Positions 134 to 21,724 of a stretch of 32,000 nucleotides of DNA are shown piece by piece; positions within the stretch are counted from its first letter, which is position 1, and every line of letters begins with the position of its first letter. Source of the DNA: Caedimonas varicaedens (GTDB lineage: Bacteria; Pseudomonadota; Alphaproteobacteria; Caedimonadales; Caedimonadaceae); the NCBI GenBank assembly GCA_001192655.1, contig BBVC01000022.1, forward strand, positions 1-32,000, read 5' to 3'. The notes beneath the pieces were generated by a model that saw nothing but the letters and a program-made list of their open reading frames with translations, was not told where the DNA came from and did no database searches. Position numbers and translations under genes: made by a program.

Positions 134-339
134 ATTTGGAAAAAATATTGTATAAGATATTTAAATATTCTATATTAACTATTCATTTTTAGATTTTTAG
201 AAGAAAATTAATAAAGAAAACCCATCATAACAGACAGATACAGAAGCATTCAATAAAGCTCAATCTTAAAATGATGTTATGATATTTTGGTCGACAACAG
301 AGAAAATGACTAAATTATGATATGTGGAAAGGAAATACA

Positions 340-1107: not shown

Positions 1108-1126
1108 TTTTGATCAACGTAGAACT

Positions 1127-1156
1127 CGTCTTAGGGAAAAGATTTTCCCTAGGACG
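1127..1156. terminator. hairpin between convergent genes (putative bidirectional terminator)
   Basis: cgtcttagggaaaa-gat-tttccctaggacg: 13-14 bp stem with one G-U/mismatch, lying between the stop at 1107 and the lpxB stop at 1216. Confidence 0.5.
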
Positions 1157-1215
1157 ACGATATTTGTAAAATACAGGCTATGTTTTGCCTGAAAAACAAA
1201 TGTCAAGATCGGTTG

Positions 1216-2346: not shown

Positions 2347-2353
2347 TCTTTCT

Positions 2354-3190: not shown

Positions 3191-3980
3191 GATCTTTTGG
3201 CACACATAAAGAGCGTGTAGATTCTGCGCGAATAAAATCGATGATCTCCATAACTCTGGGATTTTCAACAAATTTTTCTGCTGTTTTCTGAACGCGTTCT
3301 GCCAGCGTAAAGTCCTGGGAGAACAGGTTTTTATAAGCTTCCCGCAAAGTCTCGATCTCTTCTCGACCTGCTCCCCGACGTTTAAGACCAATCAGATTAA
3401 GACCATAAAGATTTGCCCGTTCTCCCTTAACGGCGCCATAAGGGATGACATCGTGTTCAACGGCGCTCATGCCGCCGATAATGGCGTGGGTGCCGATGCG
3501 GACAAATTGGTGGATGGCAGAAAGTCCGCCAATAATGACGTGATCTTCTACAATAACATGCCCAGCAAGCGTTGCGTTATTAGCCATAATCACACGATTT
3601 CCCAGAATACAATCATGGGCCACATGGGTGCTGGCCATCAGAAGACAATGATCACCCACCTCGGTTTTCATGATTCCCCCGGCTGTGCCAGCCTGAATGG
3701 TCACATATTCCCGAATGATGTTGTGGGCTCCAATGGTCAGGGTTGAAGGTTCGCCCTTGTATTTAAGATCCTGGGTTGGATGACCGATAGAACTAAAGGG
3801 ATAGATTTTTGTTTCTTTTCCAATTTTTGTGCGCCCTGCCAACGTCACATGAGAGATAAGCTCAACGCCGTCGTCCAGCTCAACCTGTTCTGTCAGGACA
3901 CAATAAGGGCCAATCCTGACGTTTTTTCCTATTTTAACAGATTTTTCAATAATCGCTGTTGGATGGATGGAAGAGACCAT
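3177..3980 (-). CDS. lpxA: acyl-ACP--UDP-N-acetylglucosamine O-acyltransferase
   Basis: 267 aa, starts MVSSIHPTAII, with hexapeptide (left-handed beta-helix) repeats. Position fabZ-lpxA-lpxI. Confidence 0.92.
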   Translation of the reverse strand: MVSSIHPTAIIEKSVKIGKNVRIGPYCVLTEQVELDDGVELISHVTLAGRTKIGKETKIYPFSSIGHPTQDLKYKGEPSTLTIGAHNIIREYVTIQAGTAGGIMKTEVGDHCLLMASTHVAHDCILGNRVIMANNATLAGHVIVEDHVIIGGLSAIHQFVRIGTHAIIGGMSAVEHDVIPYGAVKGERANLYGLNLIGLKRRGAGREEIETLREAYKNLFSQDFTLAERVQKTAEKFVENPRVMEIIDFIRAESTRSLCVPKDHESL

Positions 3981-3983
3981 TAA

Positions 3984-4451
3984 TTATGAATCCCCTGCGA
4001 CCATGGCCGTGCAAATTGTTTCAGCATGAACAACGCCATTGACTAGAGCTTCTCCTTTGAATTTCCAAATCGTTTTGCGATTCTGGATTTTTTGTACTCT
4101 GAGTTCCAATATATCTCCGGGAACAACAGGACGACGAAACCTTGCTTCTTCAATAGACATAAAATAGACGTGTCGCTGATTTTTCAGATTCATGCTGTAA
4201 CAAACCAGAATTCCTGCGGTTTGAGCGATCGCTTCAATAATCAAAACGCCCGGCATAATAGGATATTGTGGAAAATGACCCTGAAAAAAATATTCGTTTG
4301 CGGTCACGTTCTTAAAACCCACAGCACTTTCACTGGAAATAATTTTCTCAACTCGATCAACCATCAAAAAAGGATAACGGTGAGGGAGCATCTCCGTAAT
4401 TTCCTGATAGCCCAGCACAATACCCTTACTTACTTTTTCCTGTTCACTCAC
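3984..4451 (-). CDS. fabZ: 3-hydroxyacyl-ACP dehydratase FabZ
   Basis: 155 aa. [20 protein letters not shown] and PGVLIIEA are hallmark FabZ motifs. Confidence 0.95.
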
Positions 4452-5496
4452 GCGTCTTCTTCCTTTCTGCTGGAGATCGTTTTACCATACGGTTAAGCGT
4501 CGCAGTTTGACGCATAAAATCCTTGAGCGGAATAGCAGGACTGCCCAGCACAGTTTCGCCCTCGGGAATGTCTCTCATCACGCCAGATTGAGCACCAATG
4601 CGGGCGCCATTGCCGATGTCTAAATGTCCAATGATGCCTGCCTGGCCTGCAGCAATGACATAATTTCCTAATCGAGTGCTTCCTGCAATGCCGACTTGTG
4701 CAACCAGAACGCATCCTTTTCCCAAAACAACATTGTGTGCAATCATGACAAGGTTATCCAGGCGTGATCCTTGCCCAATGATTGTATCCCGCAAACTTCC
4801 TCGATCAATCGTCGCGTTTGAGCCAATTTCTACATCATCCTCGATAATGACTCTTCCTAATTGAGGAACTGTCACAAATCCTCTCTTATCCATGGCAAAG
4901 CCAAAACCTGCTTGACCTATCCGTACACCAGGATAAATTACAACGCGGCAACCAATAATGGCATGAGAGATCGTCACATTTTGCCCAATCCACGTGTGAT
5001 TGCCAATATCGACCCCGGCGCCAATCACAGTGTTTGCTCCAATTCGACAGTGTTTTCCAATCCTTGCTTTTTCCTTTACCACCACTCCATATTCAAGGAT
5101 TGTTCCTTCTCCTATTTGGGCTGTGGGGTGGGCAGGAGAAGTCATAGAGGACATCTGTCCCTCTGCCTGAGGATACAGTGCGGCAAGAGCAAGGCCAAAG
5201 CTTCGTTGGGGAGAGTCAGAAACCAATAAAGCTATTCCTTTTGGAGCAAGTTCAACGGCTGCGTGCTGAGTAAAACAAACGCCTGCCTTGCTGCTCTGAA
5301 AATCGTTCCTGTATTTCAGATTATGAAACAGAGAGATATCGGAAGGTGTCGCATCTTCAAGAGTCGCCACATTTTCAAAAGCCGAATCTTCAGTCATATT
5401 GAGAGGAAGGGGCATGACGATTTCTGCTCCGGAAACTTCAGAAAGCTTCTTGAGGCTAAGGGCGCCAGAACATTTATAAAAGCGTGGATCAATCAT
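4444..5496 (-). CDS. lpxD: UDP-3-O-acylglucosamine N-acyltransferase
   Basis: 350 aa with hexapeptide repeats. Position skp-lpxD-fabZ. 8-nt overlap with the fabZ start. Confidence 0.92.
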
Positions 5497-5509
5497 GATT
5501 GTTTATCTT

Positions 5510-6097
5510 TTAAGACCATTTTAAAGTGAGAGAGGGAAGTTTTTCATCCAATTTTTTCAGAAGTTCGTCTGTGATTTCAAGAGCATCTTCTCTAAAAATA
5601 ACAAAACTTCGTGGAATAACGAGTTTGTACTTATTTTCAACGGCGGCATCACGAATTAATAACAGGATCGTTTCCTGTACTGTTGTCATAGCCTCATTAA
5701 AAGCTGCTTCAAGCTGTTCACGGTGCTGGGTGGCTTTTTGGTGTACTTTTGCCAGTTTCGCATCAAATTCTTTGCGTTTTTCCGCAAATTCTTCGGACTT
5801 CATATCTTTTTGTTGTTCAACCAGCTTTTTATCCCACGCCAGAAAGAATTCTTCCTGTTTTTTCATTTCTTCCTGGAACTTGAATCGTTGAGTTTCCAGC
5901 TCAATTTGTACTTGTTTAGCCGCCTTGCATTCATGCAAAAGTTTATCAATATTGACAACAGCAATGTCATAAGGTTGGCCAGATTCCTTCGTATTTTTAT
6001 TTTCTGAAGAAATTTTCTGTTCTTGCCCAGAAATCGCGTTTCCAGAACAGACAAAAGTCGGGATAAAAGTGACCAAAATAAGCTGTTTGAAATTCAA
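5510..6097 (-). CDS. OmpH/Skp-family periplasmic chaperone
   Basis: 195 aa with a signal peptide and a K/E/Q-rich coiled-coil body. Lies immediately downstream of bamA, as skp does in most Gram-negatives. Confidence 0.8.
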   Translation of the reverse strand: MNFKQLILVTFIPTFVCSGNAISGQEQKISSENKNTKESGQPYDIAVVNIDKLLHECKAAKQVQIELETQRFKFQEEMKKQEEFFLAWDKKLVEQQKDMKSEEFAEKRKEFDAKLAKVHQKATQHREQLEAAFNEAMTTVQETILLLIRDAAVENKYKLVIPRSFVIFREDALEITDELLKKLDEKLPSLTLKWS

Positions 6098-6108
6098 CCT
6101 TTTCTCCT

Positions 6109-8379
6109 TTAAAAACGCGATGAGAATCCGAATAGCACAAATTGTGTCCGATCGCTTTTTTCTTTCAGAATGGCTTCTGCAAAATCAATCTTAATGGGGC
6201 CCATAGGAGATTTCCAGCGTAACCCAGCGCCCGCTGAAACACGCAACGATGGCTTATCAATAAGGTTAGGGCCTGTCAGCTTTGATTGCCAAACGCTTCC
6301 TGTATCTGAGAAAAGAGCGCCTTTTACGCCAAGCTCATTGGGAAGACCGATCGGGAAAGTAACCTCAAATCCGGCGGCATAGAATTGTTGCCCACCCAAG
6401 GGGTCCTTGGTCACTGTATCATGAGGTCCCACGCCCCCTGCCTCAAATCCACGTAAGGATTCTCCACCCAGGACATAGCGATCAGCAATACGCGTTTTTC
6501 TTCCCAACCCAAACATGATGCCGTACCGTCCTCTCACTTCAATAACGACATCGTCAAACACAGGATAATAATAAGCTCCCCTGATTTGGTTTTTCAGGAA
6601 AGAGATATTTCCGCCAAGACCTGCCAAATCATTGCCGAAACCTATAACGTATCCCATTGTTGGATTAATTTTACTGTCTCTTCGATCATAGGCAATTTCC
6701 TGGGAAACAGCAGACATCAATTTATTTCCTGCTTGCTCTCTTACATAGAGAGAAGCATTCTGGCGGATATGGTTAACATTATCAGTCTGAATACGATACC
6801 CCAAAACCTGAGAGAGATACTCGCTTAACTGATATCCCAAATTTATACTCACCCCATTAATTTGCTGGTCAAACGGGGCATCTTGAAAGCGAGTGCGAGT
6901 GACACGATAAATATCAAATCCTGCGGCTAATTCACGACCCAGGAAATAAGGTTCTGTAAAACCAATATCATATTCCTGACGGCGCTTGGCCAATGTCACG
7001 CCTGTGCGCAGGTCTTGTCCTTTTCCGCGGAAATTATGTTCAGCAAACTTGGCATCAATAAGGGGGCCATCCGCTGTGGAAAAACCTGCACCAAAGCTCA
7101 ACTCTCCCGTCCTCTCCTCTTCAACCTGAATGTCTAGATCCACCAAATCAGGAGCATTCCCTGGTTTTTTATTGATGGTCACTTTTTTAAAGAAGCCAAG
7201 ATCTTTAAGGCGTTTCTCTGAATCTTTCAAAATAGAGGTATTAAATGCATCACCTTCATAAAAACGCACTTCCCGTCGAATGACCTCATCATCTGTACGA
7301 TCATTCTGGAAAATCTGGATTTTATTCACATAGACACGGGGGCCTTCCTGAATATTGAAAGTAACGTTCAGAATATGACCTTTTTGATCTTTCTGGATAT
7401 CAGGCTGTACGTCAACAAACGCATAGCCCATGCTTCCCAAGGCATCCGTCAGAGCAGAGATCGTTTTTTCTACATCCTTGCTGCTGTACCAATCACCTGA
7501 AGAAAAAGTAATCACCTTTCGCAATGCGTTTAAGTTTACCTTTTTCAGGGATGTTTTAATGTCTACCTTCCCAATCTTGTAACGTTCTCCTTCATGAAGG
7601 GTAAAAGTAATAAAAAATTCTTTCTGATCGGGCGTAAGTTCAGCAACGGCTGATTTTACTTGAAAATCAGCATAGCCATGTTCGAGATAAAACTTCCGCA
7701 ATAGTTCACGATCATAGGCAAGGCGGTTGGGATCATAATTATCGTCAGAGGTAAAAAAGCGATACCAACGTGTTTCCTTGGTCTGGATTGTACTTTCAAG
7801 CTTGCTATGATCGAATTTCTTATTACCGATGAAGAAAATTTGACGAACAACTGTTGGCTCACCTTCCTTTATCTTAAAAATAACATCGACCCGGTTTTGA
7901 TCCCGCTGAATAATTTCGGGCGTGACAATTGCAGCAAAATGCCCTTTGAGGCGATAAAGATCCTGAATGCGTTGGGTATCATTGCGAAGGCGCGCCAAAG
8001 TATAGGTTTGTCGGGGGCGCAATTGAAGTTCAGTTTTCAGGATATCGTCCGATAATTTATCATTCCCCTCAAATTCAATTTGATTGACAATAGGATTTTC
8101 CTTCACTTGAATGACAAGCGTTGACCCGTCAATCCTGAGGGAAGCATCCGCAAAAAAACCTGTAGAATAGAGATTTTTCAGGGCTTTATCCAGATCTTCA
8201 TGGGTATATCCCTGTCCCATTTTTAGGTCGATTTGAGAGAGTATGGTTTCACGCTCAATACGAACATTGCCATCAATACGTATATTCTGAATATAAAATT
8301 GTTCTCCCGCCGCATTTGCTGGAAATATAGAAACACACGAAAAAAGGCTAAAAATAAACACCAGAAACAAATTTTTCAC
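6109..8379 (-). CDS. bamA: outer membrane protein assembly factor BamA
   Basis: 756 aa, GTG start, signal peptide, POTRA-like repeats (for example IQNIRIDGN and IVNQIEFEGN), a C-terminal beta-barrel and a terminal aromatic residue (FGFSSRF). Confidence 0.93.
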   Translation of the reverse strand: MKNLFLVFIFSLFSCVSIFPANAAGEQFYIQNIRIDGNVRIERETILSQIDLKMGQGYTHEDLDKALKNLYSTGFFADASLRIDGSTLVIQVKENPIVNQIEFEGNDKLSDDILKTELQLRPRQTYTLARLRNDTQRIQDLYRLKGHFAAIVTPEIIQRDQNRVDVIFKIKEGEPTVVRQIFFIGNKKFDHSKLESTIQTKETRWYRFFTSDDNYDPNRLAYDRELLRKFYLEHGYADFQVKSAVAELTPDQKEFFITFTLHEGERYKIGKVDIKTSLKKVNLNALRKVITFSSGDWYSSKDVEKTISALTDALGSMGYAFVDVQPDIQKDQKGHILNVTFNIQEGPRVYVNKIQIFQNDRTDDEVIRREVRFYEGDAFNTSILKDSEKRLKDLGFFKKVTINKKPGNAPDLVDLDIQVEEERTGELSFGAGFSTADGPLIDAKFAEHNFRGKGQDLRTGVTLAKRRQEYDIGFTEPYFLGRELAAGFDIYRVTRTRFQDAPFDQQINGVSINLGYQLSEYLSQVLGYRIQTDNVNHIRQNASLYVREQAGNKLMSAVSQEIAYDRRDSKINPTMGYVIGFGNDLAGLGGNISFLKNQIRGAYYYPVFDDVVIEVRGRYGIMFGLGRKTRIADRYVLGGESLRGFEAGGVGPHDTVTKDPLGGQQFYAAGFEVTFPIGLPNELGVKGALFSDTGSVWQSKLTGPNLIDKPSLRVSAGAGLRWKSPMGPIKIDFAEAILKEKSDRTQFVLFGFSSRF

Positions 8380-8417
8380 CGAACAACCCTCACATCAAAA
8401 ATTTAAGGCATACTGAT

Positions 8418-9542
8418 CTAGTTAAAGATATTTTTAAAAAACTCAAATACTTTCAAATGGGATAAATCATTCCATGTAGAAATCACTACCAGCAACATGA
8501 CAAGACTAAATCCGATACGATAGCCAGCTTCCTGAACTTTTTCGGAAACAGCTTTTCCACGAATGGCTTCTATAAAATAGAAAAGAAGGTGTCCGCCATC
8601 AAGCATAGGAACAGGGAATAGATTAATCAATCCCAAATTAATGGACAATAACGCTGTTAACCATATGAGGTCTACCAGACTTTTACGTGCCACTTCTCCT
8701 GTCAAATTGGCAATCCCCAAGGGCCCGCTCAGCCCATCTGTTGATTGATTGCCTACAATCATTTGCCCCAGATGAGCCAAAGTTTTTGCGCTGAAAGTGT
8801 AAACGTCTTCTACGGCATAAAAATAGGCGGTTAAAGGGGAACGTTTGACTTCATGATAGGAAGGGGTAATGCCCAGCCTTCCTATTTCATGGTCTCTTAC
8901 TTTTATTGCCTGGGGTGTTGCGCGAATCATCATCTTCTGTTCTTCACGCTGCACATGAAGGACAATTTCATGCCCTGGATTTTCCTGGATAATTTTCTGA
9001 AGCTCGACAAATGTTCCTGTTGTGATGCCATTAATATCCAGAATAAGATCACCTTCCTGAAGTCCAACCTGTTCAGCGGCGCTTTTGGGCATAATGTGAC
9101 CAATTTTCGTCTCCTCAGAAGGAATTTTTTGTCCCATAAAAATATAAAGTGTTCCAAAAAGGAAAATGGCAAAGAGATAATTCGCCAAAGGACCCGCTGC
9201 AGAAACAGCAATTCGTTGCCAGACTGTTTTATGAAAAAGAGAGACTTCTTTATCCTTTTCGCTCATCTCTTGAATGAGTGTCTGATCCGGTTGGCTTGCG
9301 GGGTTCAGATCGCTGAACATTTTGACATAGCCCCCCATTGGAATGATGCTGATTTTCCAGCGTGTTCCCACACGGTCTGTCCAGCCGAAAAGTTCAGCGC
9401 CAAACCCAATGGAAAACACCTCAACTTTTACACCATTCCAGCGCGCAACAAGGTAGTGTCCCAATTCATGGACAAAAACAAGAAGAGAAAGAACCAGGAT
9501 AAAAGGAATAATATTATAATAAACGAGGTTAATCAGAGACAT
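8418..9542 (-). CDS. rseP: RIP metalloprotease RseP (site-2 protease)
   Basis: HELGH zinc motif near the N-terminus, an internal PDZ-like segment and a C-terminal LNLFPVPMLDGG motif. I chose the start at ATG 9542 (374 aa). The ORF is open to 9641, and ATG 9554 is an alternative start. Confidence 0.88.
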   Translation of the reverse strand: MSLINLVYYNIIPFILVLSLLVFVHELGHYLVARWNGVKVEVFSIGFGAELFGWTDRVGTRWKISIIPMGGYVKMFSDLNPASQPDQTLIQEMSEKDKEVSLFHKTVWQRIAVSAAGPLANYLFAIFLFGTLYIFMGQKIPSEETKIGHIMPKSAAEQVGLQEGDLILDINGITTGTFVELQKIIQENPGHEIVLHVQREEQKMMIRATPQAIKVRDHEIGRLGITPSYHEVKRSPLTAYFYAVEDVYTFSAKTLAHLGQMIVGNQSTDGLSGPLGIANLTGEVARKSLVDLIWLTALLSINLGLINLFPVPMLDGGHLLFYFIEAIRGKAVSEKVQEAGYRIGFSLVMLLVVISTWNDLSHLKVFEFFKNIFN

Positions 9543-9745
9543 CCTATGATCCATTCTTAATAGTGATTTTTTAATTCTTGAAGTGTAAAGTCCCAAATGC
9601 GTTCGCGCAAGACAAATTAAAAGGAAAAACGATAAAATCAATCAAGGTTGCATTCTATCATAAAGTTTTATAAAGAAGCATTTGAAGATTTATGTATTTT
9701 TCCTGAAAATACCTGGAGAGTCAAACACGTAGGGGAAAATTAAAG

Positions 9746-10198
9746 ATGCGCCTTGCCCTTTATCAACCTGAAATTCCCCAAAACACGGGGACGCTTTTAC
9801 GACTTGGCGCCTGTCTGGGTGTTCCCCTTGATATTATAGAGCCATGTGGGTTTCCTTTATCAGATGCTGGCTTAAGGCGTGCCGGTATGGATTATCTCGA
9901 GCGTGCAAGCCTAACGCGCCATCAAGGATGGGAAGACTTTCTCAAAGTATGTCCGGGACGTTTGATTCTGATGACGCCCCATACTTCCCATTCCTTTCTC
10001 GATTTTATCTTTGAAAAAGATGATACCCTTCTCTTGGGTCGGGAAAGCTCTGGAGTTCCTGTCACAATTGTTCAACAAATCCAAATCCATCTCAAGATCC
10101 CCATGCTTCCCGATCGGCGTTCAATCAATGTTGCATTGGCGGGCGCCATGGTGTTAAATGAGGCCTTGAGACAAACAAAACTTTTCCCATCTCCATGA
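9746..10198 (+). CDS. trmL: SpoU/TrmL-type tRNA (cytidine/uridine-2'-O)-methyltransferase
   Basis: 150 aa. MRLALYQPEIPQNTG..LRL..PLDIIEP..G..D..LRRAGMDY matches the short TrmL/YibK architecture. Confidence 0.8.
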   Translation: MRLALYQPEIPQNTGTLLRLGACLGVPLDIIEPCGFPLSDAGLRRAGMDYLERASLTRHQGWEDFLKVCPGRLILMTPHTSHSFLDFIFEKDDTLLLGRESSGVPVTIVQQIQIHLKIPMLPDRRSINVALAGAMVLNEALRQTKLFPSP

Positions 10199-11038
10199 TT
10201 GATCAACAAAAAGTTCTTGCCCAAAATTGGTTTGAAAGTCTTCGCGATCAGATCTGTGCGGCTTTTTGAAGCGATTGAAATCACGTATTGCCAGTCCCAT
10301 CCTCCTTCAGATTCAGTCCAGTTTTCCTATAAAACCTGGAAACGTGAAAGCGGGGGCGGTGGGACAATGGCGCTGATGAAAGGAAAAGTATTTGAAAAGG
10401 TAGGTGTTAATGTCTCTACTGTTTGGGGGGAGTTTTCTCCAAAATTTCGGGCAGAGATTCCTGGCGCTGTGGAAGATCCACGTTTCTGGGCAAGTGGTAT
10501 TTCTCTGGTTGCCCATATGGCTTCTCCGCTGGTACCTGCGATTCATATGAACACACGTCATATTATAACGACCAAATCCTGGTTCGGGGGGGGGACTGAT
10601 CTTACGCCTTACTATCCTTATGATGAAGATACCCGGGATTTTCATGATACTCTGCGTCAGACATGTGACGCTTTCAACAAAGACTATTACCCCAAATATA
10701 AAAAGTGGTGTGATGAATATTTTTTTCTTCCTCACCGTAAAGAACCTCGGGGAGTAGGGGGTATTTTTTATGATTATCTTGATTCAGGCTCATGGGAACG
10801 CGATTTTTCCTTTACACAAGGTGTGGGACGCGCCTTCCTTGATGTCTATCCGCGTATTATCCTGCGCCGGCTCAATCTCCCCTGGACAGAAGAGCAGCGG
10901 GAATACCAGCTTCAAAAGCGAGGACGATACGTAGAGTTCAATCTTCTATATGATCGAGGGACGCGTTTTGGCTTGATGACAGATGGCAATATAGAATCCA
11001 TTCTGATGTCCATGCCGCCTGAAGTAAAATGGGTTTAG
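10195..11038 (+). pseudogene. hemF: oxygen-dependent coproporphyrinogen III oxidase, full length but with an apparent +1 frameshift after codon ~24
   Basis: The ATG at 10195 overlaps the trmL stop (ATGA) and reads [24 protein letters not shown]. This matches the conserved HemF N-terminus (E. coli ..LQDTICQQL..). The rest of HemF (EAIE...GGGG...[13 protein letters not shown]...YKKWCDEYF...RGRYVEFNL...SMPP) is in the next frame (ORF 10199..11038). The frame switch is at the T5 run 10263..10267. Confidence 0.65.
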
Positions 11039-11059
11039 AAAAACAGGGATCAAACGATA

Positions 11060-11088
11060 TATAGCTAACAACATATAAAACGGTCATA
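11060..11088. mobile_element. solo IS630 terminal inverted repeat (about 29 bp, rest of the IS absent)
   Basis: tatagctaacaacatataaaacggtcata is identical to the end of the complete IS at 21725..21753. It is fused directly to internal hemF sequence of the inverted arm. Confidence 0.8.
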
Positions 11089-11661
11089 AAAAATACCCCC
11101 TACTCCCCGAGGTTCTTTACGGTGAGGAAGAAAAAAATATTCATCACACCACTTTTTATATTTGGGGTAATAGTCTTTGTTGAAAGCGTCACATGTCTGA
11201 CGCAGAGTATCATGAAAATCCCGGGTATCTTCATCATAAGGATAGTAAGGCGTAAGATCAGTCCCCCCCCGAACCAGGATTTGGTCGTTATAATATGACG
11301 TGTGTTCATATGAATCGCAGGTACCAGCGGAGAAGCCATATGGGCAACCAGAGAAATACCACTTGCCCAGAAACGTGGATCTTCCACAGCGCCAGGAATC
11401 TCTGCCCGAAATTTTGGAGAAAACTCCCCCCAAACAGTAGAGACATTAACACCTACCTTTTCAAATACTTTTCCTTTCATCAGCGCCATTGTCCCACCGC
11501 CCCCGCTTTCACGTTTCCAGGTTTTATAGGAAAACTGGACTGAATCTGAAGGAGGATGGGACTGGCAATACGTGATTTCAATCGCTTCAAAAAGCCGCAC
11601 AGATCTGATCGCGAAGACTTTCAAACCAATTTTGGGCAAGAACTTTTTGTTGATCAATCAT
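11084..11661 (-). pseudogene. hemF: hemF copy 2: 3'-truncated, with the shared frameshift plus an extra one
   Basis: Reverse complement of 10195..10773. C8 at 11263..11270 versus G9 at 10586..10594 in copy 1. The copy ends inside the codons for GGIFYD at the IS remnant. Confidence 0.85.
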
Positions 11662-12109
11662 GGAGATGGGAAAAGTTTTGTTTGTCTCAAGGCCTCATTT
11701 AACACCATGGCGCCCGCCAATGCAACATTGATTGAACGCCGATCGGGAAGCATGGGGATCTTGAGATGGATTTGGATTTGTTGAACAATTGTGACAGGAA
11801 CTCCAGAGCTTTCCCGACCCAAGAGAAGGGTATCATCTTTTCAAAGATAAAATCGAGAAAGGAATGGGAAGTATGGGGCGTCATCAGAATCAAACGTCCC
11901 GGACATACTTTGAGAAAGTCTTCCCATCCTTGATGGCGCGTTAGGCTTGCACGCTCGAGATAATCCATACCGGCACGCCTTAAGCCAGCATCTGATAAAG
12001 GAAACCCACATGGCTCTATAATATCAAGGGGAACACCCAGACAGGCGCCAAGTCGTAAAAGCGTCCCCGTGTTTTGGGGAATTTCAGGTTGATAAAGGGC
12101 AAGGCGCAT
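11658..12109 (-). pseudogene. trmL: trmL copy 2, frameshifted
   Basis: Identical to copy 1 up to ..FIFEK. T4 at 11838..11841 versus A5 at 10014..10018 in copy 1 changes the frame and gives a premature stop (ORF 11699..12109). Confidence 0.85.
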
Positions 12110-12312
12110 CTTTAATTTTCCCCTACGTGTTTGACTCTCCAGGTATTTTCAGGAAAAATACATAAATCTTCAAATGCTTCTTTATAAAACTTTATGATAG
12201 AATGCGACCTTGATTGATTTTATCGTTTTTCCTTTTAATTTGTCTTGCGCGAACGCATTTGGGACTTTACACTTCAAGAATTAAAAAATCACTATTAAGA
12301 ATGGATCATAGG

Positions 12313-13437
12313 ATGTCTCTGATTAACCTCGTTTATTATAATATTATTCCTTTTATCCTGGTTCTTTCTCTTCTTGTTTTTGTCCATGAATTGGGACACT
12401 ACCTTGTTGCGCGCTGGAATGGTGTAAAAGTTGAGGTGTTTTCCATTGGGTTTGGCGCTGAACTTTTCGGCTGGACAGACCGTGTGGGAACACGCTGGAA
12501 AATCAGCATCATTCCAATGGGGGGCTATGTCAAAATGTTCAGCGATCTGAACCCCGCAAGCCAACCGGACCAGACACTCATTCAAGAGATGAGCGAAAAG
12601 GATAAAGAAGTCTCTCTTTTTCATAAAACAGTCTGGCAACGAATTGCTGTTTCTGCAGCGGGTCCTTTGGCGAATTATCTCTTTGCCATTTTCCTTTTTG
12701 GAACACTTTATATTTTTATGGGACAAAAAATTCCTTCTGAGGAGACGAAAATTGGTCACATTATGCCCAAAAGCGCCGCTGAACAGGTTGGACTTCAGGA
12801 AGGTGATCTTATTCTGGATATTAATGGCATCACAACAGGAACATTTGTCGAGCTTCAGAAAATTATCCAGGAAAATCCAGGGCATGAAATTGACCTTCAT
12901 GTGCAGCGTGAAGAACAGAAGATGATGATTCGCGCAACACCCCAGGCAATAAAAGTAAGAGACCATGAAATAGGAAGGCTGGGCATTACCCCTTCCTATC
13001 ATGAAGTCAAACGTTCCCCTTTAACCGCCTATTTTTATGCCGTAGAAGACGTTCACACTTTCAGCGCAAAAACTTTGGCTCATCTGGGGCAAATGATTGT
13101 AGGCAATCAATCAACAGATGGGCTGAGCGGGCCCTTGGGGATTGCCAATTTGACAGGAGAAGTGGCACGTAAAAGTCTGGTAGACCTCATATGGTTAACA
13201 GCGTTATTGTCCATTAATTTGGGATTGATTAATCTATTCCCTGTTCCTATGCTTGATGGCGGACACCTTCTTTTCTATTTTATAGAAGCCATTCGTGGAA
13301 AAGCTGTTTCCGAAAAAGTTCAGGAAGCTGGCTATCGTATCGGATTTAGTCTTGTCATGTTGCTGGTAGTGATTTCTACATGGAATGATTTATCCCATTT
13401 GAAAGTATTTGAGTTTTTTAAAAATATCTTTAACTAG
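12313..13437 (+). CDS. rseP: RIP metalloprotease RseP, copy 2 (intact, 2 aa substitutions)
   Basis: Same length as copy 1. Differs by V->D (HEIDLHV) and Y->H (EDVHTF), plus one synonymous change (GAT/GAC). Confidence 0.8.
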   Translation: MSLINLVYYNIIPFILVLSLLVFVHELGHYLVARWNGVKVEVFSIGFGAELFGWTDRVGTRWKISIIPMGGYVKMFSDLNPASQPDQTLIQEMSEKDKEVSLFHKTVWQRIAVSAAGPLANYLFAIFLFGTLYIFMGQKIPSEETKIGHIMPKSAAEQVGLQEGDLILDINGITTGTFVELQKIIQENPGHEIDLHVQREEQKMMIRATPQAIKVRDHEIGRLGITPSYHEVKRSPLTAYFYAVEDVHTFSAKTLAHLGQMIVGNQSTDGLSGPLGIANLTGEVARKSLVDLIWLTALLSINLGLINLFPVPMLDGGHLLFYFIEAIRGKAVSEKVQEAGYRIGFSLVMLLVVISTWNDLSHLKVFEFFKNIFN

Positions 13438-13475
13438 ATCAGTATGCCTTAAATTTTTGATGTGAGGGTTGTTCG

Positions 13476-15748
13476 GTGAGAAATTTGTTTCTGGTGTTTA
13501 TTTTTAGCCTTTTTTCGTGTGTTTCTATATTTCCAGCAAATGCGGCGGGAGAACAATTTTTATATTCAGAATATACGTATTGATGGCAATGTTCGTATTG
13601 AGCGTGAAACCATACTCTCTCAAATCGACCTAAAAATGGGACAGGGATATACCCATGAAGATCTGGATAAAGCCCTGAAAAATCTCTATTCTACAGGTTT
13701 TTTTGCGGATGCTTCCCTCAGGATTGACGGGTCAACGCTTGTCATTCAAGTGAAGGAAAATCCTATTGTCAATCAAATTGAATTTGAGGGGAATGATAAA
13801 TTATCGGACGATATCCTGAAAACTGAACTTCAATTGCGCCCCCGACAAACCTATACTTTGGCGCGCCTTCGCAATGATACCCAACGCATTCAGGATCTTT
13901 ATCGCCTCAAAGGGCATTTTGCTGCAATTGTCACGCCCGAAATTATTCAGCGGGATCAAAACCGGGTCGATGTTATTTTTAAGATAAAGGAAGGTGAGCC
14001 AACAGTTGTTCGTCAAATTTTCTTCATCGGTAATAAGAAATTCGATCATAGCAAGCTTGAAAGTACAATCCAGACCAAGGAAACACGTTGGTATCGCTTT
14101 TTTACCTCTGACGATAATTATGATCCCAACCGCCTTGCCTATGATCGTGAACTATTGCGGAAGTTTTATCTCGAACATGGCTATGCTGATTTTCAAGTAA
14201 AATCAGCCGTTGCTGAACTTACGCCCGATCAGAAAGAATTTTTTATTACTTTTACCCTTCATGAAGGAGAACGTTACAAGATTGGGAAGGTAGACATTAA
14301 AACATCCCTGAAAAAGGTAAACTTAAACGCATTGCGAAAGGTGATTACTTTTTCTTCAGGTGATTGGTACAGCAGCAAGGATGTAGAAAAAACGATCTCT
14401 GCTCTGACGGATGCCTTGGGAAGCATGGGCTATGCGTTTGTTGACGTACAGCCTGATATCCAGAAAGATCAAAAAGGTCATATTCTGAACGTTACTTTCA
14501 ATATTCAGGAAGGCCCCCGTGTCTATGTGAATAAAATCCAGATTTTCCAGAATGATCGTACAGATGATGAGGTCATTCGACGGGAAGTGCGTTTTTATGA
14601 AGGTGATGCATTTAATACCTCTATTTTGAAAGATTCAGAGAAACGCCTTAAAGATCTTGGCTTCTTTAAAAAAGTGACCATCAATAAAAAACCAGGGAAT
14701 GCTCCTGATTTGGTGGATCTAGACATTCAGGTTGAAGAGGAGAGGACGGGAGAGTTGAGCTTTGGTGCAGGTTTTTCCACAGCGGATGGCCCCCTTATTG
14801 ATGCCAAGTTTGCTGAACATAATTTCCGCGGAAAAGGACAAGACCTGCGCACAGGCGTGACATTGGCCAAGCGCCGTCAGGAATATGATATTGGTTTTAC
14901 AGAACCTTATTTCCTGGGTCGTGAATTAGCCGCAGGATTTGATATTTATCGTGTCACTCGCACTCGCCTTCAAGATGCCCCGTTTGACCAGCAAATTAAT
15001 GGGGTGAGTATAAATTTGGGATATCAGTTAAGCGAGTATCTCTCTCAGGTTTTGGGGTATCGTATTCAGACTGATAATGTTAACCATATCCGCCAGAATG
15101 CTTCTCTCTATGTAAGAGAGCAAGCAGGAAATAAATTGATGTCTGCTGTTTCCCAGGAAATTGCCTATGATCGAAGAGACAGTAAAATTAATCCAACAAT
15201 GGGATACGTTATAGGTTTCGGCAATGATTTGGCAGGTCTTGGCGGAAATATCTCTTTCCTGAAAAACCAAATCAGGGGAGCTTATTATTATCCTGTGTTT
15301 TGACGATGTCGTTATTGAAGTGAGAGGACGGTACGGCATCATGTTTGGGTTGGGAAGAAAAACGCGTATTGCTGATCGCTATGTCCTGGGTGGAGAATCC
15401 TTACGTGGATTTGAGGCAGGGGGCGTGGGACCTCATGATACAGTGACCAAGGACCCCTTGGGTGGGCAACAATTCTATGCCGCCGGATTTGAGGTTACTT
15501 TCCCGATCGGTCTTCCCAATGAGCTTGGCGTAAAAGGCGCTCTTTTCTCAGATACAGGAAGCGTTTGGCAATCAAAGCTGACAGGCCCTAACCTTATTGA
15601 TAAGCCATCGTTGCGTGTTTCAGCGGGCGCTGGGTTACGCTGGAAATCTCCTATGGGCCCCATTAAGATTGATTTTGCAGAAGCCATTCTGAAAGAAAAA
15701 AGCGATCGGACACAATTTGTGCTATTCGGATTCTCATCGCGTTTTTAA
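13476..15748 (+). pseudogene. bamA: bamA copy 2, two +1 frameshifts
   Basis: GTG at 13476. T5 at 13557..13561 versus A4 at 8295..8298, and T4 at 15298..15301 versus A3 at 6556..6558. The ORF is split into 13519..15303 and 15320..15748. Also K2R and F->L substitutions. Confidence 0.88.
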
Positions 15749-15759
15749 AGGAGAAAAGG

Positions 15760-16347
15760 TTGAATTTCAAACAGCTTATTTTGGTCACTTTTATCCCGAC
15801 TTTTGTCTGTTCTGGAAACGCGATTTCTGGGCAAGAACAGAAAATTTCTTCAGAAAATAAAAATACGAAGGAATCTGGCCAACCTTATGACATTGCTGTT
15901 GTCAATATTGATAAACTTTTGCATGAATGCAAGGCGGCTAAACAAGTACAAATTGAGCTGGAAACTCAACGATTCAAGTTCCAGGAAGAAATGAAAAAAC
16001 AGGAAGAATTCTTTCTGGCGTGGGATAAAAAGCTGGTTGAACAACAAAAAGATATGAAGTCCGAAGAATTTGCGGAAAAACGCAAAGAATTTGATGCGAA
16101 ACTGGCAAAAGTACACCAAAAAGCCACCCAGCACCGTGAACAGCTTGAAGCAGCTTTTAATGAGGCTATGACAACAGTACAGGAAACGATCCTGTTATTA
16201 ATTCGTGATGCCGCCGTTGAAAATAAGTACAAACTCGTTATTCCACGAAGTTTTGTTATTTTTAGAGAAGATGCTCTTGAAATCACAGACGAACTTCTGA
16301 AAAAATTGGATGAAAAACTTCCCTCTCTCACTTTAAAATGGTCTTAA
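15760..16347 (+). CDS. OmpH/Skp-family chaperone, copy 2 (intact)
   Basis: 195-aa translation identical to 5510..6097. Confidence 0.78.
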   Translation: MNFKQLILVTFIPTFVCSGNAISGQEQKISSENKNTKESGQPYDIAVVNIDKLLHECKAAKQVQIELETQRFKFQEEMKKQEEFFLAWDKKLVEQQKDMKSEEFAEKRKEFDAKLAKVHQKATQHREQLEAAFNEAMTTVQETILLLIRDAAVENKYKLVIPRSFVIFREDALEITDELLKKLDEKLPSLTLKWS

Positions 16348-16360
16348 AAGATAAACAATC

Positions 16361-17413
16361 ATGATTGATCCACGCTTTTATAAATGTTCTGGCGCCCTTA
16401 GCCTCAAGAAGCTTTCTGAAGTTTCCGGAGCAGAAATCGTCATGCCCCTTCCTCTCAATATGACTGAAGATTCGGCTTTTGAAAATGTGGCGACTCTTGA
16501 AGATGCGACACCTTCCGATATCTCTCTGTTTCATAATCTGAAATACAGGAACGATTTTCAGAGCAGCAAGGCAGGCGTTTGTTTTACTCAGCACGCAGCC
16601 GTTGAACTTGCTCCAAAAGGAATAGCTTTATTGGTTTCTGACTCTCCCCAACGAAGCTTTGGCCTTGCTCTTGCCGCACTGTATCCTCAGGCAGAGGGAC
16701 AGATGTCCTCTATGACTTCTCCTGCCCACCCCACAGCCCAAATAGGAGAAGGAACAATCCTTGAATATGGAGTGGTGGTAAAGGAAAAAGCAAGGATTGG
16801 AAAACACTGTCGAATTGGAGCAAACACTGTGATTGGCGCCGGGGTCGATATTGGCAATCACACGTGGATTGGGCAAAATGTGACGATCTCTCATGCCATT
16901 ATTGGTTGCCGCGTTGTAATTTATCCTGGTGTACGGATAGGTCAAGCAGGTTTTGGCTTTGCCATGGATAAGAGAGGATTTGTGACAGTTCCTCAATTAG
17001 GAAGAGTCATTATCGAGGATGATGTAGAAATTGGCTCAAACGCGACGATTGATCGAGGAAGTTTGCGGGATACAATCATTGGGCAAGGATCACGCCTGGA
17101 TAACCTTGTCATGATTGCACACAATGTTGTTTTGGGAAAAGGATGCGTTCTGGTTGCACAAGTCGGCATTGCAGGAAGCACTCGATTAGGAAATTATGTC
17201 ATTGCTGCAGGCCAGGCAGGCATCATTGGACATTTAGACATCGGCAATGGCGCCCGCATTGGTGCTCAATCTGGCGTGATGAGAGACATTCCCGAGGGCG
17301 AAACTGTGCTGGGCAGTCCTGCTATTCCGCTCAAGGATTTTATGCGTCAAACTGCGACGCTTAACCGTATGGTAAAACGATCTCCAGCAGAAAGGAAGAA
17401 GACGCGTGAGTGA
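16361..17413 (+). CDS. lpxD: UDP-3-O-acylglucosamine N-acyltransferase, copy 2 (intact)
   Basis: 350-aa translation identical to copy 1. Confidence 0.88.
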
Positions 17414-17872
17414 ACAGGAAAAAGTAAGTAAGGGTATTGTGCTGGGCTATCAGGAAATTACGGAGATGCTCCCTCACCGTTATCCTTTTTTGATGGTTGA
17501 TCGAGTTGAGAAAATTATTTCCAGTGAAAGTGCTGTGGGTTTTAAGAACGTGACCGCAAACGAATATTTTTTTCAGGGTCATTTTCCACAATATCCTATT
17601 ATGCCGGGCGTTTTGATTATTGAAGCGATCGCTCAAACCGCAGGAATTCTGGTTTGTTACAGCATGAATCTGAAAAATCAGCGACACGTCTATTTTATGT
17701 CTATTGAAGAAGCAAGGTTTCGTCGTCCTGTTGTTCCCGGAGATATATTGGAACTCAGAGTACAAAAATCCAGAATCGCAAAACGATTTGGAAATTCAAA
17801 GGAGAAGCTCTAGTCAATGGCGTTGTTCATGCTGAAACAATTTGCACGGCCATGGTCGCAGGGGATTCATAA
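17406..17872 (+). pseudogene. fabZ: fabZ copy 2, frameshifted near the C-terminus
   Basis: A5 at 17764..17768 versus T6 at 4088..4093 in copy 1. The translation diverges after ..LELRVQK and stops at 17813. The last ~34 residues of FabZ are lost. Confidence 0.85.
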
Positions 17873-17875
17873 TTA

Positions 17876-18679
17876 ATGGTCTCTTCCATCCATCCAACAG
17901 CGATTATTGAAAAATCTGTTAAAATAGGAAAAAACGTCAGGATTGGCCCTTATTGTGTCCTGACAGAACAGGTTGAGCTGGACGACGGCGTTGAGCTTAT
18001 CTCTCATGTGACGTTGGCAGGGCGCACAAAAATTGGAAAAGAAACAAAAATCTATCCCTTTAGTTCTATCGGTCATCCAACCCAGGATCTTAAATACAAG
18101 GGCGAACCTTCAACCCTGACCATTGGAGCCCACAACATCATTCGGGAATATGTGACCATTCAGGCTGGCACAGCCGGGGGAATCATGAAAACCGAGGTGG
18201 GTGATCATTGTCTTCTGATGGCCAGCACCCATGTGGCCCATGATTGTATTCTGGGAAATCGTGTGATTATGGCTAATAACGCAACGCTTGCTGGGCATGT
18301 TATTGTAGAAGATCACGTCATTATTGGCGGACTTTCTGCCATCCACCAATTTGTCCGCATCGGCACCCACGCCATTATCGGCGGCATGAGCGCCGTTGAA
18401 CACGATGTCATCCCTTATGGCGCCGTTAAGGGAGAACGGGCAAATCTTTATGGTCTTAATCTGATTGGTCTTAAACGTCGGGGAGCAGGTCGAGAAGAGA
18501 TCGAGACTTTGCGGGAAGCTTATAAAAACCTGTTCTCCCAGGACTTTACGCTGGCAGAACGCGTTCAGAAAACAGCAGAAAAATTTGTTGAAAATCCCAG
18601 AGTTATGGAGATCATCGATTTTATTCGCGCAGAATCTACACGCTCTTTATGTGTGCCAAAAGATCATGAAAGCCTCTGA
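17876..18679 (+). CDS. lpxA: acyl-ACP--UDP-GlcNAc O-acyltransferase, copy 2 (intact)
   Basis: 267-aa translation identical to copy 1. Confidence 0.88.
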   Translation: MVSSIHPTAIIEKSVKIGKNVRIGPYCVLTEQVELDDGVELISHVTLAGRTKIGKETKIYPFSSIGHPTQDLKYKGEPSTLTIGAHNIIREYVTIQAGTAGGIMKTEVGDHCLLMASTHVAHDCILGNRVIMANNATLAGHVIVEDHVIIGGLSAIHQFVRIGTHAIIGGMSAVEHDVIPYGAVKGERANLYGLNLIGLKRRGAGREEIETLREAYKNLFSQDFTLAERVQKTAEKFVENPRVMEIIDFIRAESTRSLCVPKDHESL

Positions 18680-19502
18680 ATCTCCCAAGTTAGGCATTAT
18701 TGCAGGAAGCGGTGATCTTCCAAGAGAAATTATCAAAGTCTGCCAGGCAGAGAGACGGCCCTTCCTGGTATTAGCCTATGCGGGTCAAACAGATCCTGAA
18801 ACTTATTTACAACATCCTCATATCATGGGTCGTTTAGGAAAAGTGGGAGAAGCCATTCAGGGTTTAAAAGAAGCACAGGTTAAAGAGTTGGTTCTTGCGG
18901 GGCGATTTCACAGACCCTCTTGGACAGAATTAAAGCCAGATGCCCTATGCGCAAAATGGCTTGCCCAGTCAGCAAAAAATATTTTTGGAGATGACTCTCT
19001 TTTAAAAATTATTATCCAGAACTTGGAAACGGAAGGATTTCGTGTCGTTGGTGCTGAAGAGATTATTGGGGAAAAGCTCTTGGTTCCCGAGGGAGTGTTG
19101 GGGCGCTTTCATCCCGATGAACAAGCGACAAGAGACATTGATTATGGTTTAAAAATCATCAGGGCTTTGGGAAAATGTGATATTGGACAGGCTGTTGTTG
19201 TTCAGCAAGGTCTTGTTCTGGGTGTTGAAGCGATTGAAGGGACGGATCAGCTTTTAGTGCGATGCCGGCTCTTAAAACGCGAGGGAACAGGTGGGGTATT
19301 GATAAAGATTCTTAAACCCTTTCAGGAAACACGCGCTGACCGCCCTACCATAGGACCGCAAACAATCATCCATGCCCTTGAGGCGGGCTTAAGGGGTATT
19401 GCCGTGGAAGCGGGTGGTGTTATTGTCCATCAATTGCCGAAAATAGTTGAAATTGCAGACAAAAATGACTTCTTTTTAATTGGACTGAAGATAAAATCAT
19501 GA
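18666..19502 (+). CDS. lpxI: LpxI (DUF1009), copy 2 (intact)
   Basis: Translation identical to copy 1. ATG at 18666. Confidence 0.78.
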   Translation: MKASESPKLGIIAGSGDLPREIIKVCQAERRPFLVLAYAGQTDPETYLQHPHIMGRLGKVGEAIQGLKEAQVKELVLAGRFHRPSWTELKPDALCAKWLAQSAKNIFGDDSLLKIIIQNLETEGFRVVGAEEIIGEKLLVPEGVLGRFHPDEQATRDIDYGLKIIRALGKCDIGQAVVVQQGLVLGVEAIEGTDQLLVRCRLLKREGTGGVLIKILKPFQETRADRPTIGPQTIIHALEAGLRGIAVEAGGVIVHQLPKIVEIADKNDFFLIGLKIKS

Positions 19503-19509
19503 AGAAAGA

Positions 19510-20641
19510 ATGGATATGATTCATGTTTATCTTATTGCAGGAGAGGCATCAGGAGACCAGGTAGGGGGGCGTTTGATGCAAGCTCTGCAACGCAAATCTG
19601 ATGTCACATTTTCTGGGATAGGGGGAATGCACATGGAACAGCAGGGGTTACGTAGCCTGTTCCCTATGAGCGATCTTTCCATCATGGGAATTTTTGAAGT
19701 TTTACCCCATATCCCTCATTTGCTGAAACGTCTTGGGGAAACAGAGCACGATATTCTTAAAAAACGTCCTGACGTCGTTGTGACCATTGATTCTCCGGGT
19801 TTTAATTTCAGAATTGCAAAACGCCTTAAAAAGAAAGGCTTTCCCGTCATTCATTATACAGCGCCCACAGTCTGGGCATGGCGCCCGGGGCGCGCCAAAA
19901 AAGCTGCCAAATTACTGACTCACTTGCTAACGCTTTTTCCTTTTGAGCCACCTTACTTTGAAAAAGAAGGACTCTTCACGACTTTTGTGGGACATCCACT
20001 GATTGAAATGGATATTTCTCCCCAGCGCAGGGAAGGATTCCGACAACGTTATGGTTATACAGAAGAGCAACCTCTCCTCTGTCTTTTACCAGGCAGCCGG
20101 CAGAAAGAAGTTGATAAGCTCCTACCTCTTTTTGTAGAGTCTTTTAAGACTTTTTAAGGTCACATCTTCCTGATCTTAATATCCTCTTGCCTGTTGTCCC
20201 TCATCTTGAGTCGTCCATTCGAGATCGTCTCAAGGATTCAGCATTACCCATCAGGATCATTTCTGATCCCCAGGAAAAATTGCAGCAATGGCTGCCAGCA
20301 ATATTGCTCTGGCCGCTTCTGGAACAGTAGCTCTTGAATTGGCATTGACTCAAACACCTACTGTAATCGCCTATAAAATTAATCCTCTGACAGCTTGGGT
20401 GATGCGACGTCTGATTTTGACGCCCTATGTATGCCTGGTCAATATTCTTTTAAATCAACGTGTCGTGCCGGAATTGTTACAGGAAAATTGCACAACAGAA
20501 AATATTGTAGAAAATATCCTAAAAGAAATGCAGGGAACACAGCAGGAAAAATTAAAAGAAATTCGAGCGCTTATTTCGCCTCTCAAAGGAATGCCCAGCG
20601 ATACCGCAGCGGATCAAATTTTACGATTAGTAAAACGTTAA
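19510..20641 (+). pseudogene. lpxB: lpxB copy 2, three homopolymer indels
   Basis: T4 at 20142..20145 (versus A3 at 1712..1714), T5 at 20151..20155 (versus A4 at 1703..1706) and A5 at 20275..20279 (versus T6 at 1578..1583). The ORF is split into 19510..20157 and 20288..20641 in different frames. Confidence 0.88.
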
Positions 20642-20700
20642 CAACCGATCTTGACATTTGTTTTTCAGGCAAAACATAGCCTGTATTTTACAAATATCGT

Positions 20701-20730
20701 CGTCCTAGGGAAAATCTTTTCCCTAAGACG
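20701..20730. terminator. mirror copy of the 1127..1156 hairpin
   Basis: cgtcctagggaaaa-tct-tttccctaagacg. Confidence 0.45.
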
Positions 20731-20749
20731 AGTTCTACGTTGATCAAAA

Positions 20750-21517
20750 TTAATCTTTTAGAGAATATAAAATATCCGCTGGGTCACGTACCTTACCATT
20801 TTTAAAGATATAATAGTTTGTAAACTTACCATAAAGTCTCCATGAGCTTGTAACAGTGCACATTAAAGAAGCACCTAACGCGTGCATTTCAAAATCAAAA
20901 GAAGTTTGTCCTTGTTTATAGTCCGAATGTATTTTCATAAATTTAAAAATCTTAGGATTTTTACTGTAAACTCCATACGTATCTCCCTCTTTATTTTGAA
21001 TTCCTTCAATTTTTGAGACTGTAAAAGCTTGTTGGCCCAATTTATTAGTGGCTTTTACATCTAAACTATTTTCATCGTTTAGGGTTACTCCTAATTTATA
21101 TTCAATACTTTTTTTCAAAGCCTGATTTGCCAGTATGATTAATTTAGCGTGCAGAGCTGTCTCATTACAGTCTTTTTTTTCATCTCTCATGTCTCTAACA
21201 GGTAATTTTGCAGCCACTAATTCGTCTGCATTTCCATACTCATCCCAAGAAATGCCTCCGTTATCATGGTTTTGTCTTAACTCTTCACGTTTGCGTTGAA
21301 CGTCATTCACCAGATTCTGGTCAATTTGAACTCTTTGTCGCCCCTGTCCCTGAATTTCCCTGACTTTTTCTTGAGGCAACACTTCAGGAATTTTCCCTAC
21401 TCGAATAAGCTCATTAAAAACAGCCGTACATTCCTCTTCTAAAATGGACGTAGCAAAGCTAGTGTTTGTTGCAATTAATGCCAAATTGAATAAATATAAA
21501 GCAAAAATTCTCTTCAT
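20750..21517 (-). CDS. hypothetical secreted protein, copy 2 (intact)
   Basis: Translation identical to copy 1. One synonymous difference (tct/tcc) near 21446. Confidence 0.6.
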   Translation of the reverse strand: MKRIFALYLFNLALIATNTSFATSILEEECTAVFNELIRVGKIPEVLPQEKVREIQGQGRQRVQIDQNLVNDVQRKREELRQNHDNGGISWDEYGNADELVAAKLPVRDMRDEKKDCNETALHAKLIILANQALKKSIEYKLGVTLNDENSLDVKATNKLGQQAFTVSKIEGIQNKEGDTYGVYSKNPKIFKFMKIHSDYKQGQTSFDFEMHALGASLMCTVTSSWRLYGKFTNYYIFKNGKVRDPADILYSLKD

Positions 21518-21724
21518 TGTATTTCCTTTCCACATATCATAATTTAGTCATTTTCTCTGTTGTCGACCAAAATATCATAACATCATTTTAAGATTGAGCT
21601 TTATTGAATGCTTCTGTATCTGTCTGTTATGATGGGTTTTCTTTATTAATTTTCTTCTAAAAATCTAAAAATGAATAGTTAATATAGAATATTTAAATAT
21701 CTTATACAATATTTTTTCCTGAAA

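Follow-up and report, generated by a model that had tools for sequence, protein, structure and literature searches.

The window analysed here, the first 32,000 nucleotides of contig BBVC01000022.1 of the alphaproteobacterium Caedimonas varicaedens, belongs to a contig of 43,140 bp in the draft assembly BBVC01 and contains a large inverted repeat in which a cluster of envelope genes, including bamA and the lpx genes, is written twice. In the second arm of this repeat five genes are interrupted, and this asymmetry had been taken, in an earlier sequence-only reading of the same DNA, for the decay of a redundant gene copy. In our assessment, the asymmetric decay of arm 2 is probably technical and comes from errors of Roche 454 sequencing and assembly. 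As to the second copy itself, its physical presence in the genome and its absence appear roughly balanced as judged from the sequence.

Self-BLAST and a global alignment delimited the inverted repeat as positions 1–10773 against 11084–21857, with 99.82% identity and a spacer of 310 bp. Arm 1 (138–10773) represents the native locus and comprises an orphan gene, lpxB, lpxI, lpxA, fabZ, lpxD, skp, bamA, rseP, trmL and the 5′ part of hemF. Arm 2 (11084–21719) is a reverse-complement copy of arm 1 and holds every derived difference. The genes were named from NCBIfam, and the order and gene lengths in arm 1 agree with those of relatives possessing a single copy. The unique spacer (10774–11061, forward strand) consists of the 3′ end of hemF with its stop at 11038, 21 bp of native hemF–def intergenic DNA and a TA target, and is collinear with the related contig L012. 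The arms had previously been placed at 134–10773 and 11084–21724; the inverted repeat itself stands, but positions 1–134 and 21726–21857 belong to copies of an IS630 insertion sequence (IS) and lie outside the gene block. Read across the whole structure, the order is the end of IS copy A, arm 1, hemF, TA, IS positions 1–27, the reverse complement of the arm from 10773, the IS from its L to its R end, TA and def. The pairwise alignment of the arms that the sequence-only reading had called for returned 17 differences, of which eight are indels of one base and eight are substitutions, the last being a complex change at the boundary, and the longest stretches identical between the arms reach 2,470 bp.

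The eight homopolymer indels predicted from the letters were all recovered at exactly the sites given. On the reverse strand of arm 2 they affect hemF (11263–11270, C8 in arm 2 and G9 in arm 1) and trmL (11838–11841, T4 and A5, respectively). On the forward strand they affect bamA (13557–13561, T5 and A4; 15298–15301, T4 and A3), fabZ (17764–17768, A5 and T6) and lpxB (20142–20145, T4 and A3; 20151–20155, T5 and A4; 20275–20279, A5 and T6), where the T4 and T5 runs of lpxB represent two insertions separated by 9 bp. They had been thought to account for every length difference between the arms, but a ninth one, which is not a simple homopolymer change, was found at the boundary between the IS and the arm. 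Each of the eight is a gain or loss of a single base within a run of 3–9 bases. Runs of at least 3 bases make up 25% of the arm, and the chance of all eight indels falling there is 0.25^8 = 1.5e-5. The direction of the changes in arm 2 is also regular, in that the four runs with at least 5 bases are each shortened and the four with 3–4 bases each lengthened, a perfect separation (two-sided p ~0.03). Such a drift toward mid-length run calls is an outcome of flow-signal miscalling. Three of the indels lie inside 133 bp of lpxB (p = 0.023).

Owing to these indels, the open reading frames (ORFs) of 756 aa for bamA, 155 aa for fabZ, 376 aa for lpxB and 150 aa for trmL in arm 1 correspond in arm 2 to two pieces of bamA (594 and 142 aa), 135 aa of fabZ, two pieces of lpxB (215 and 117 aa) and 136 aa of trmL, and hemF is interrupted as well. 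The genes rseP, skp, lpxD, lpxA and lpxI and the 261-aa orphan, described earlier as a secreted protein, are open in arm 2; the ORF list thus agrees with the set previously considered intact.

The alignment gave eight substitutions, rather than the nine counted before, at arm-1 positions 411, 1735, 6888, 8375, 8801, 8962, 9285 and 9649 (in arm-2 coordinates 21446, 20121, 14968, 13480, 13054, 12893, 12570 and 12206). Five of them are gathered around rseP, within 1,274 bp (12206–13480; p = 0.032), and this clustering, like that of the indels, suggests local patches of poor support. The eight comprise three synonymous changes, an intergenic one and four nonsynonymous ones, the latter being K2R and F498L in bamA and the changes of V to D and Y to H in rseP, as had been reported. 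The description of the substitutions as mostly transitions also holds, since seven of the eight are transitions, and all seven run from AT to GC in arm 2. The AT to GC fraction is 0.50 in a set of 111 natural transitions for which the relative L001 gave the polarity, and seven out of seven in arm 2 gives p = 0.007. Two origins of the substitutions were considered and dropped. Shifts of homopolymer boundaries, where the new base equals its neighbour, fit four of the eight by inspection, which is about the chance level, and a common methylation motif is suggested by one site (GATC to GGTC) and receives no support from the remaining ones.

The closest genomes belong to Caedimonadaceae, and a scan of genome contigs yielded relatives at no more than 86% amino-acid identity. 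Much closer are several metagenome and Logan contigs (L012–L018) with 97.8% DNA identity, and the independent assembly GCA_041443065.1 encodes an identical BamA. All relatives recovered carry the cluster once, with def adjoining hemF, in the order VgrG, 215-aa gene, rsfS, def, hemF, trmL, rseP, bamA, skp, lpxD, fabZ, lpxA, lpxI, lpxB, and none of them has an IS between def and hemF. The differences were polarised with L012 and L013 (97.8% DNA identity) as outgroups; L001, with a DNA identity of only 74%, served as a second outgroup only, because it is too distant to polarise synonymous sites alone. The outgroup state was found in arm 1 at 17 of 17 sites and the derived state in arm 2 at all 17, and more distant relatives support the same polarity at the amino-acid level. 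The eight substitutions, whose polarisation against orthologues had been proposed, are all derived in arm 2. The ancestral state of arm 1 at all sites, together with its native context, indicates that arm 2 is the secondary copy.

The asymmetry between the arms is therefore real in the sequence, yet it contains no evidence for selection. The ratio of indels to substitutions is 8:8 between the arms and 4:228 between arm 1 and L012 (Fisher p = 2e-8), or 2:15 in non-coding DNA only (p = 0.026). The near-neutral changes, comprising the three synonymous and the one intergenic substitution, all lie on arm 2 and none on arm 1, a weak deviation at n = 4 (p = 1/16, 0.06). The spectrum of differences is unlike natural divergence in this lineage. 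A pseudogenised duplicate should leave neutral changes on both copies and a spectrum resembling that of the lineage itself, and the arms show neither. Relaxed selection on a redundant copy, which was favoured before, is poorly supported by the indel ratio, the direction of the transitions and the neutral changes. The probability of 0.008 calculated for the one-sided distribution of the indels rested on an equal error rate in both arms and fails if arm 2 was derived from fewer or poorer reads. The alternative mentioned at that time, a poorly polished arm in an assembly prone to homopolymer errors, is favoured by the platform and the spectrum.

Homopolymer length is the dominant, signature error of 454 sequencing. 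The C. varicaedens draft was produced with Roche 454 only and assembled using Newbler 2.5.3 into 142 contigs (PMC4645214), and a 2025 review still treats BBVC01 as the sole genome of the species (PMC11909080). The window corresponds to this draft by exact matches of its proteins to public identifiers on one contig, with RseP of arm 1 being GAO97994.1 and RseP of arm 2 GAO97999.1; further identifiers are GAO97993 for bamA, GAO98000 for the arm-2 bamA fragment and GAO98010 for the transposase. The findings match 454 error in the pyrosequencing platform, the restriction of the one-base indels to homopolymers and the variant states, which are private and stand against those of close relatives. As in known artefactual frameshifts of 454/Newbler assemblies, the platform is documented, the changes of one base occur in runs of 3–9 bases, long runs become shorter and short ones longer, and the relatives lack the derived states. 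The present case differs from them in that one stretch of 10.6 kb is enriched about tenfold in errors, which are not spread along the contig, and that the substitutions are as many as the indels.

If the differences are technical, arm 2 would be the same 10.6 kb rendered once more from minority or low-quality reads, bearing the miscalls of the platform, with long runs under-called and short runs over-called by one base. Its substitutions would be a few transition miscalls or amplification errors, and hemF, trmL, bamA, fabZ and lpxB would be broken on paper only. The sorting of the variants into arms does not represent a measured haplotype, because the identical stretches between variants, as long as 2,470 bp, are not bridged by 454 reads, whose length is a few hundred bases. 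If the pooled reads of a two-copy repeat had been split randomly or by local majority, a 17:0 distribution would have p ~1.5e-5. It seems that the derived calls were consistently in the minority and were sent to a second pass, as expected for errors or for a rare subpopulation.

Several observations weigh against this explanation. The case is built on the consensus sequences of the two arms. The rest of the contig is clean over ~18 kb, with at most about one suspect homopolymer call (a T5 run in hemF, described below), so that an ad hoc reason is needed for a poor arm 2 alone. Newbler normally collapses near-identical repeats, and the explanation cannot account for two Newbler consensuses of a repeat 99.8% identical, nor for a path through a 902-bp IS. 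The change at the boundary of arm 2, where CA is gained and A is lost, is not a homopolymer error. A spectrum of AT to GC transitions and one-base homopolymer indels is likewise produced in vivo by deficiency in mismatch repair. Finally, the ratio of indels to mismatches is about 1:1 between the arms versus about 10:1 in raw 454 reads, where Titanium errors amount to 0.54% insertions, 0.36% deletions and 0.09% mismatches (PMC3116506).

The claim that the eight indels break reading frames in arm 2 alone holds for the indels themselves, but arm 1, too, has a frameshift in hemF. The true ATG of hemF is at 10195, and its reading frame ends after 24 codons owing to an additional T in a T5 run (10263–10267, forward strand), which is T4 in all relatives; the arm-2 counterpart is A5 at 11589–11593. 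In L012, L013 and GCA_041443065.1 hemF is intact and encodes 280 aa. The presence of this run in both arms indicates that arm 1 is not free of frameshifts and that at least one suspect homopolymer call exists beyond the differences between the arms. It may stem from an error in the 454 consensus or, if real, be a lesion of very recent origin.

The outer and inner limits of the repeat are connected with copies of IS630. Copy A is represented by its end only (1–134, forward strand), which includes the C-terminus of the transposase and the terminal inverted repeat of the ‘L’ side, with a TA target after it, and continues beyond the start of the window. Positions 1–134 are identical to the reverse complement of 21726–21857, and L012 has an empty site there, TTTTTATATAATTTGG. 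Copy B is complete (21728–22629, reverse strand; 902 bp), encodes a 274-aa transposase (21749–22573) matching NF033545 with 131.6 bits against a cut-off of 100, and has TA on both sides. The L and R ends are imperfect terminal inverted repeats that align over ~30 nt with few mismatches. The element shares with members of the IS630/Tc1-mariner group a DDE transposase above the cut-off, a duplicated TA target, terminal inverted repeats that are imperfect and a site left unoccupied in relatives; it differs in being short (902 bp, 274-aa transposase) and in that one copy is split by the arm, leaving a stump of 27 bp. The TA flanks of the insertion are at 11060–11061 and 22630–22631. The 21 bp after the hemF stop, the TA and the 59 bp up to the def start at 22691 add up to 82 bp, which is the hemF–def gap in relatives without the IS, and the empty site between hemF and def in L012 is GATATACG. 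This indicates that copy B arose by plain insertion at a TA in the hemF–def gap. The 902-bp IS630 is present in at least three identical copies in the assembly.

Judging from the sequence at the junction, arm 2 is apparently lodged inside IS630 copy B after IS position 27. The stump (11062–11088, forward strand; TAGCTAACAACATATAAAACGGTCATA) is preceded by TA and is identical to 21728–21754. At the inner junction, TCATA (5 nt) is common to IS positions 23–27 and to the reverse complement of hemF 10769–10773, constituting both the last 5 nt of the stump and the first 5 nt of arm 2, with a loop of 310 bp. A 36-mer covering the junction had no match in the metagenome contig collection, and the 27-mer of the IS end had one match there, in an unrelated IS copy. 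At the other end, the boundary between arm 2 and the IS (21720–21727) reads CC-TGAAATA-TAGC versus the native CC-AAATTA-TAGC of arm 1 and the relatives. Expressed in the orientation of arm 1, TATA-ATTT-GG (131–139) stands against TATA-TTTCA-GG in arm 2 (21719–21728), with the difference at 133–137 and 21720–21726, respectively. The 9-mer CCTGAAATA, new at this boundary, is found again 45 bp away within the IS (21763–21771), pointing to a possible template switch or a locally misaligned consensus. An inversion isoform between the inverted IS630 copies accounts for the side with arm 2, the IS and def, but not for the junction of the stump with hemF, and was rejected as the sole explanation.

Other traces of the same element were noticed elsewhere. 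A 97%-identical IS630 copy occupies another TA site at positions 122–922 of an unrelated metagenome contig (L019, JACCDN010172698.1). In the C. varicaedens assembly, many short transposase fragments of IS630 are listed, including an identical pair of 98 aa (GAO97597 and GAO97610) on one 27.8-kb contig, and this pair might mark another IS-bracketed or duplicated segment.

If the second copy is real, it could have arisen by a foldback in which synthesis leaves hemF, enters the first 27 bp of IS630 copy B, switches strand at the TCATA microhomology 310 bp behind, copies the cluster backwards and returns via the inverted IS630 copy. The 310-bp loop, the 5-bp microhomology and the return through an inverted IS fit both a real template-switch duplication and a snap-back chimera. 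There is a considerable chance, if somewhat below even, that the second copy physically exists, whether fixed or confined to a subpopulation of the symbiont, and is identical to arm 1, the differences alone being technical. The assembler must have had reads over the junction of the stump with hemF to produce such a path, and the simple graph of one repeat, one 310-bp loop and two unique exits has a single traversal visiting the repeat twice; besides, a 5-bp microhomology is improbable in random ligation (~1e-3). On the other hand, short-loop microhomology foldback chimeras are a known artefact of libraries and amplification, and one chimeric read at a repeat boundary can mislead the assembler, because no unique continuation outvotes such a read. 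The duplication was seen in none of the relatives recovered, and the junction is missing from the metagenome collection. A further reading, very unlikely, is that the assembler split real polymorphisms, present at low frequency in a mixed symbiont population, off into a second path, so that the arm-2 substitutions would be real but would not mark a second genomic copy. The derived states do act as minority calls gathered in one arm, and the substitutions, relative to the indels, exceed the prediction from raw 454 errors; seven AT to GC changes out of seven are, however, unusual for standing variation, and the novel junction of the stump with hemF is left unexplained.

A real inverted duplication with real decay, in which arm 1 is under purifying selection and the redundant arm 2 gathers slippage frameshifts and substitutions, seems unlikely. 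It agrees with a junction that is specific and mechanistically coherent, joining the 27-bp IS630 stump to the middle of hemF through a 5-bp microhomology, and with the return of the other end via a full IS630 with TA duplications exactly in the native 82-bp hemF–def spacer. Arm 1 is the copy in the native context, and the frame-breaking differences between the arms are all on arm 2. The organism, from a Paramecium biaurelia stock, is a host-restricted symbiont rich in ISs, with 100 transposase hits reported for the C. varicaedens genome (PMC4645214). But the near-neutral substitutions, expected on both copies, are on arm 2 in four cases of four, the 8:8 ratio is far from that of the lineage, and the transitions run from AT to GC in seven of seven cases against 50% naturally. 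Eight frameshifts at a substitution divergence of 0.075% would mean implausibly fast decay, the 454 platform yields exactly the same class of indels, and the short reads, which presumably could not phase the variants, make the sorting no measurement. Moreover, instability is to be expected of an inverted repeat of 10.6 kb that is closed by a 310-bp loop. An equally doubtful scenario combines a real recent foldback in this Paramecium killer symbiont with homopolymer slippage at an extraordinary rate and a repair-deficient spectrum of AT to GC and one-base changes; as part of the same scenario, a break or a stalled fork at the IS630 end would have led to the 10.6-kb essential bamA–lpx cluster being copied backwards and resolved via the inverted IS630. 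Mutagenic break-induced replication was also considered and rejected, since it gives the right kind of changes but falls orders of magnitude short of the 1.5e-3 changes per base seen here.

Foldback chimeras formed in vitro, by strand switching or snap-back priming in end repair or in multiple displacement amplification, share with the present structure the inverted join 310 bp apart and the 5-bp microhomology; they occur in single reads, whereas here a whole 10.6-kb arm is followed by an exit through the IS into the correct downstream gene. In vivo, template-switch inverted duplications are known as tandem inversion duplications in Salmonella and as replication U-turns at inverted repeats in yeast. 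The similarity to them consists of a short-loop microhomology snap-back and a second join that makes use of inverted repeats already in place, in this case the inverted pair of IS630 copies. The differences are that there are two copies here versus three in a classical tandem inversion duplication, that no selection for amplification is evident, that the genes are essential envelope genes and that the structure is known from one assembly alone. The pseudogenisation of duplicates in host-restricted bacteria likewise involves one intact copy and one with poly(A/T) frameshifts in an IS-rich endosymbiont, but in this case the intact copy is without neutral changes, and the indel to substitution ratio and the direction of the transitions are unlike those of the lineage. 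As distinct from amplification chimeras, no amplification step is reported in the C. varicaedens genome paper (PMC4645214).

With the technical explanation of the differences being the preferred one, the second RseP (GAO97999, UniProt A0A0K8MDS4, with the V to D and Y to H changes) and the truncated second BamA (GAO98000) probably do not exist as annotated. The contig is an unsafe basis for counts of pseudogenes and paralogues and for duplicated envelope functions in C. varicaedens. Should the duplication be physically real, it would offer a clean case from nature of essential genes duplicated through a foldback anchored in an IS.

Some features of the window concern the orphan gene and the region downstream of def. 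The exact 261-aa orphan sequence was not found in the protein collection, and in the 97.8%-identical relatives the place of this ORF (322–1107) is taken by two ORFs of 186 and 60 aa (L012, 18442–19209). Compared with L012, the window has 145 bp inserted between the 215-aa gene and rsfS (23788–23932); this insertion has terminal inverted repeats of ~18–21 bp (TAGACTTCTTTGGAAACC and GGTTTCGAAAGAAGTCTA) and TA at both ends, and by these features looks like a miniature inverted-repeat element of a TA-targeting kind. Between the genes of an MFS transporter and VgrG, L012 and L015 contain ~1.1 kb that includes an ORF of 109 aa and a sugar transferase (Bac_transf). In the window this place (27358–27588) is taken by 231 bp in which a motif of ~27 nt occurs twice (AATTTATGGRGCTAACTTGGATTAAAG). 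The region 23958–27267 encodes VgrG (type VI secretion spike, 884 aa), followed by the 215-aa protein, which weakly matches the LIC20035 adhesin family and may be a VgrG-linked effector in this killer symbiont.

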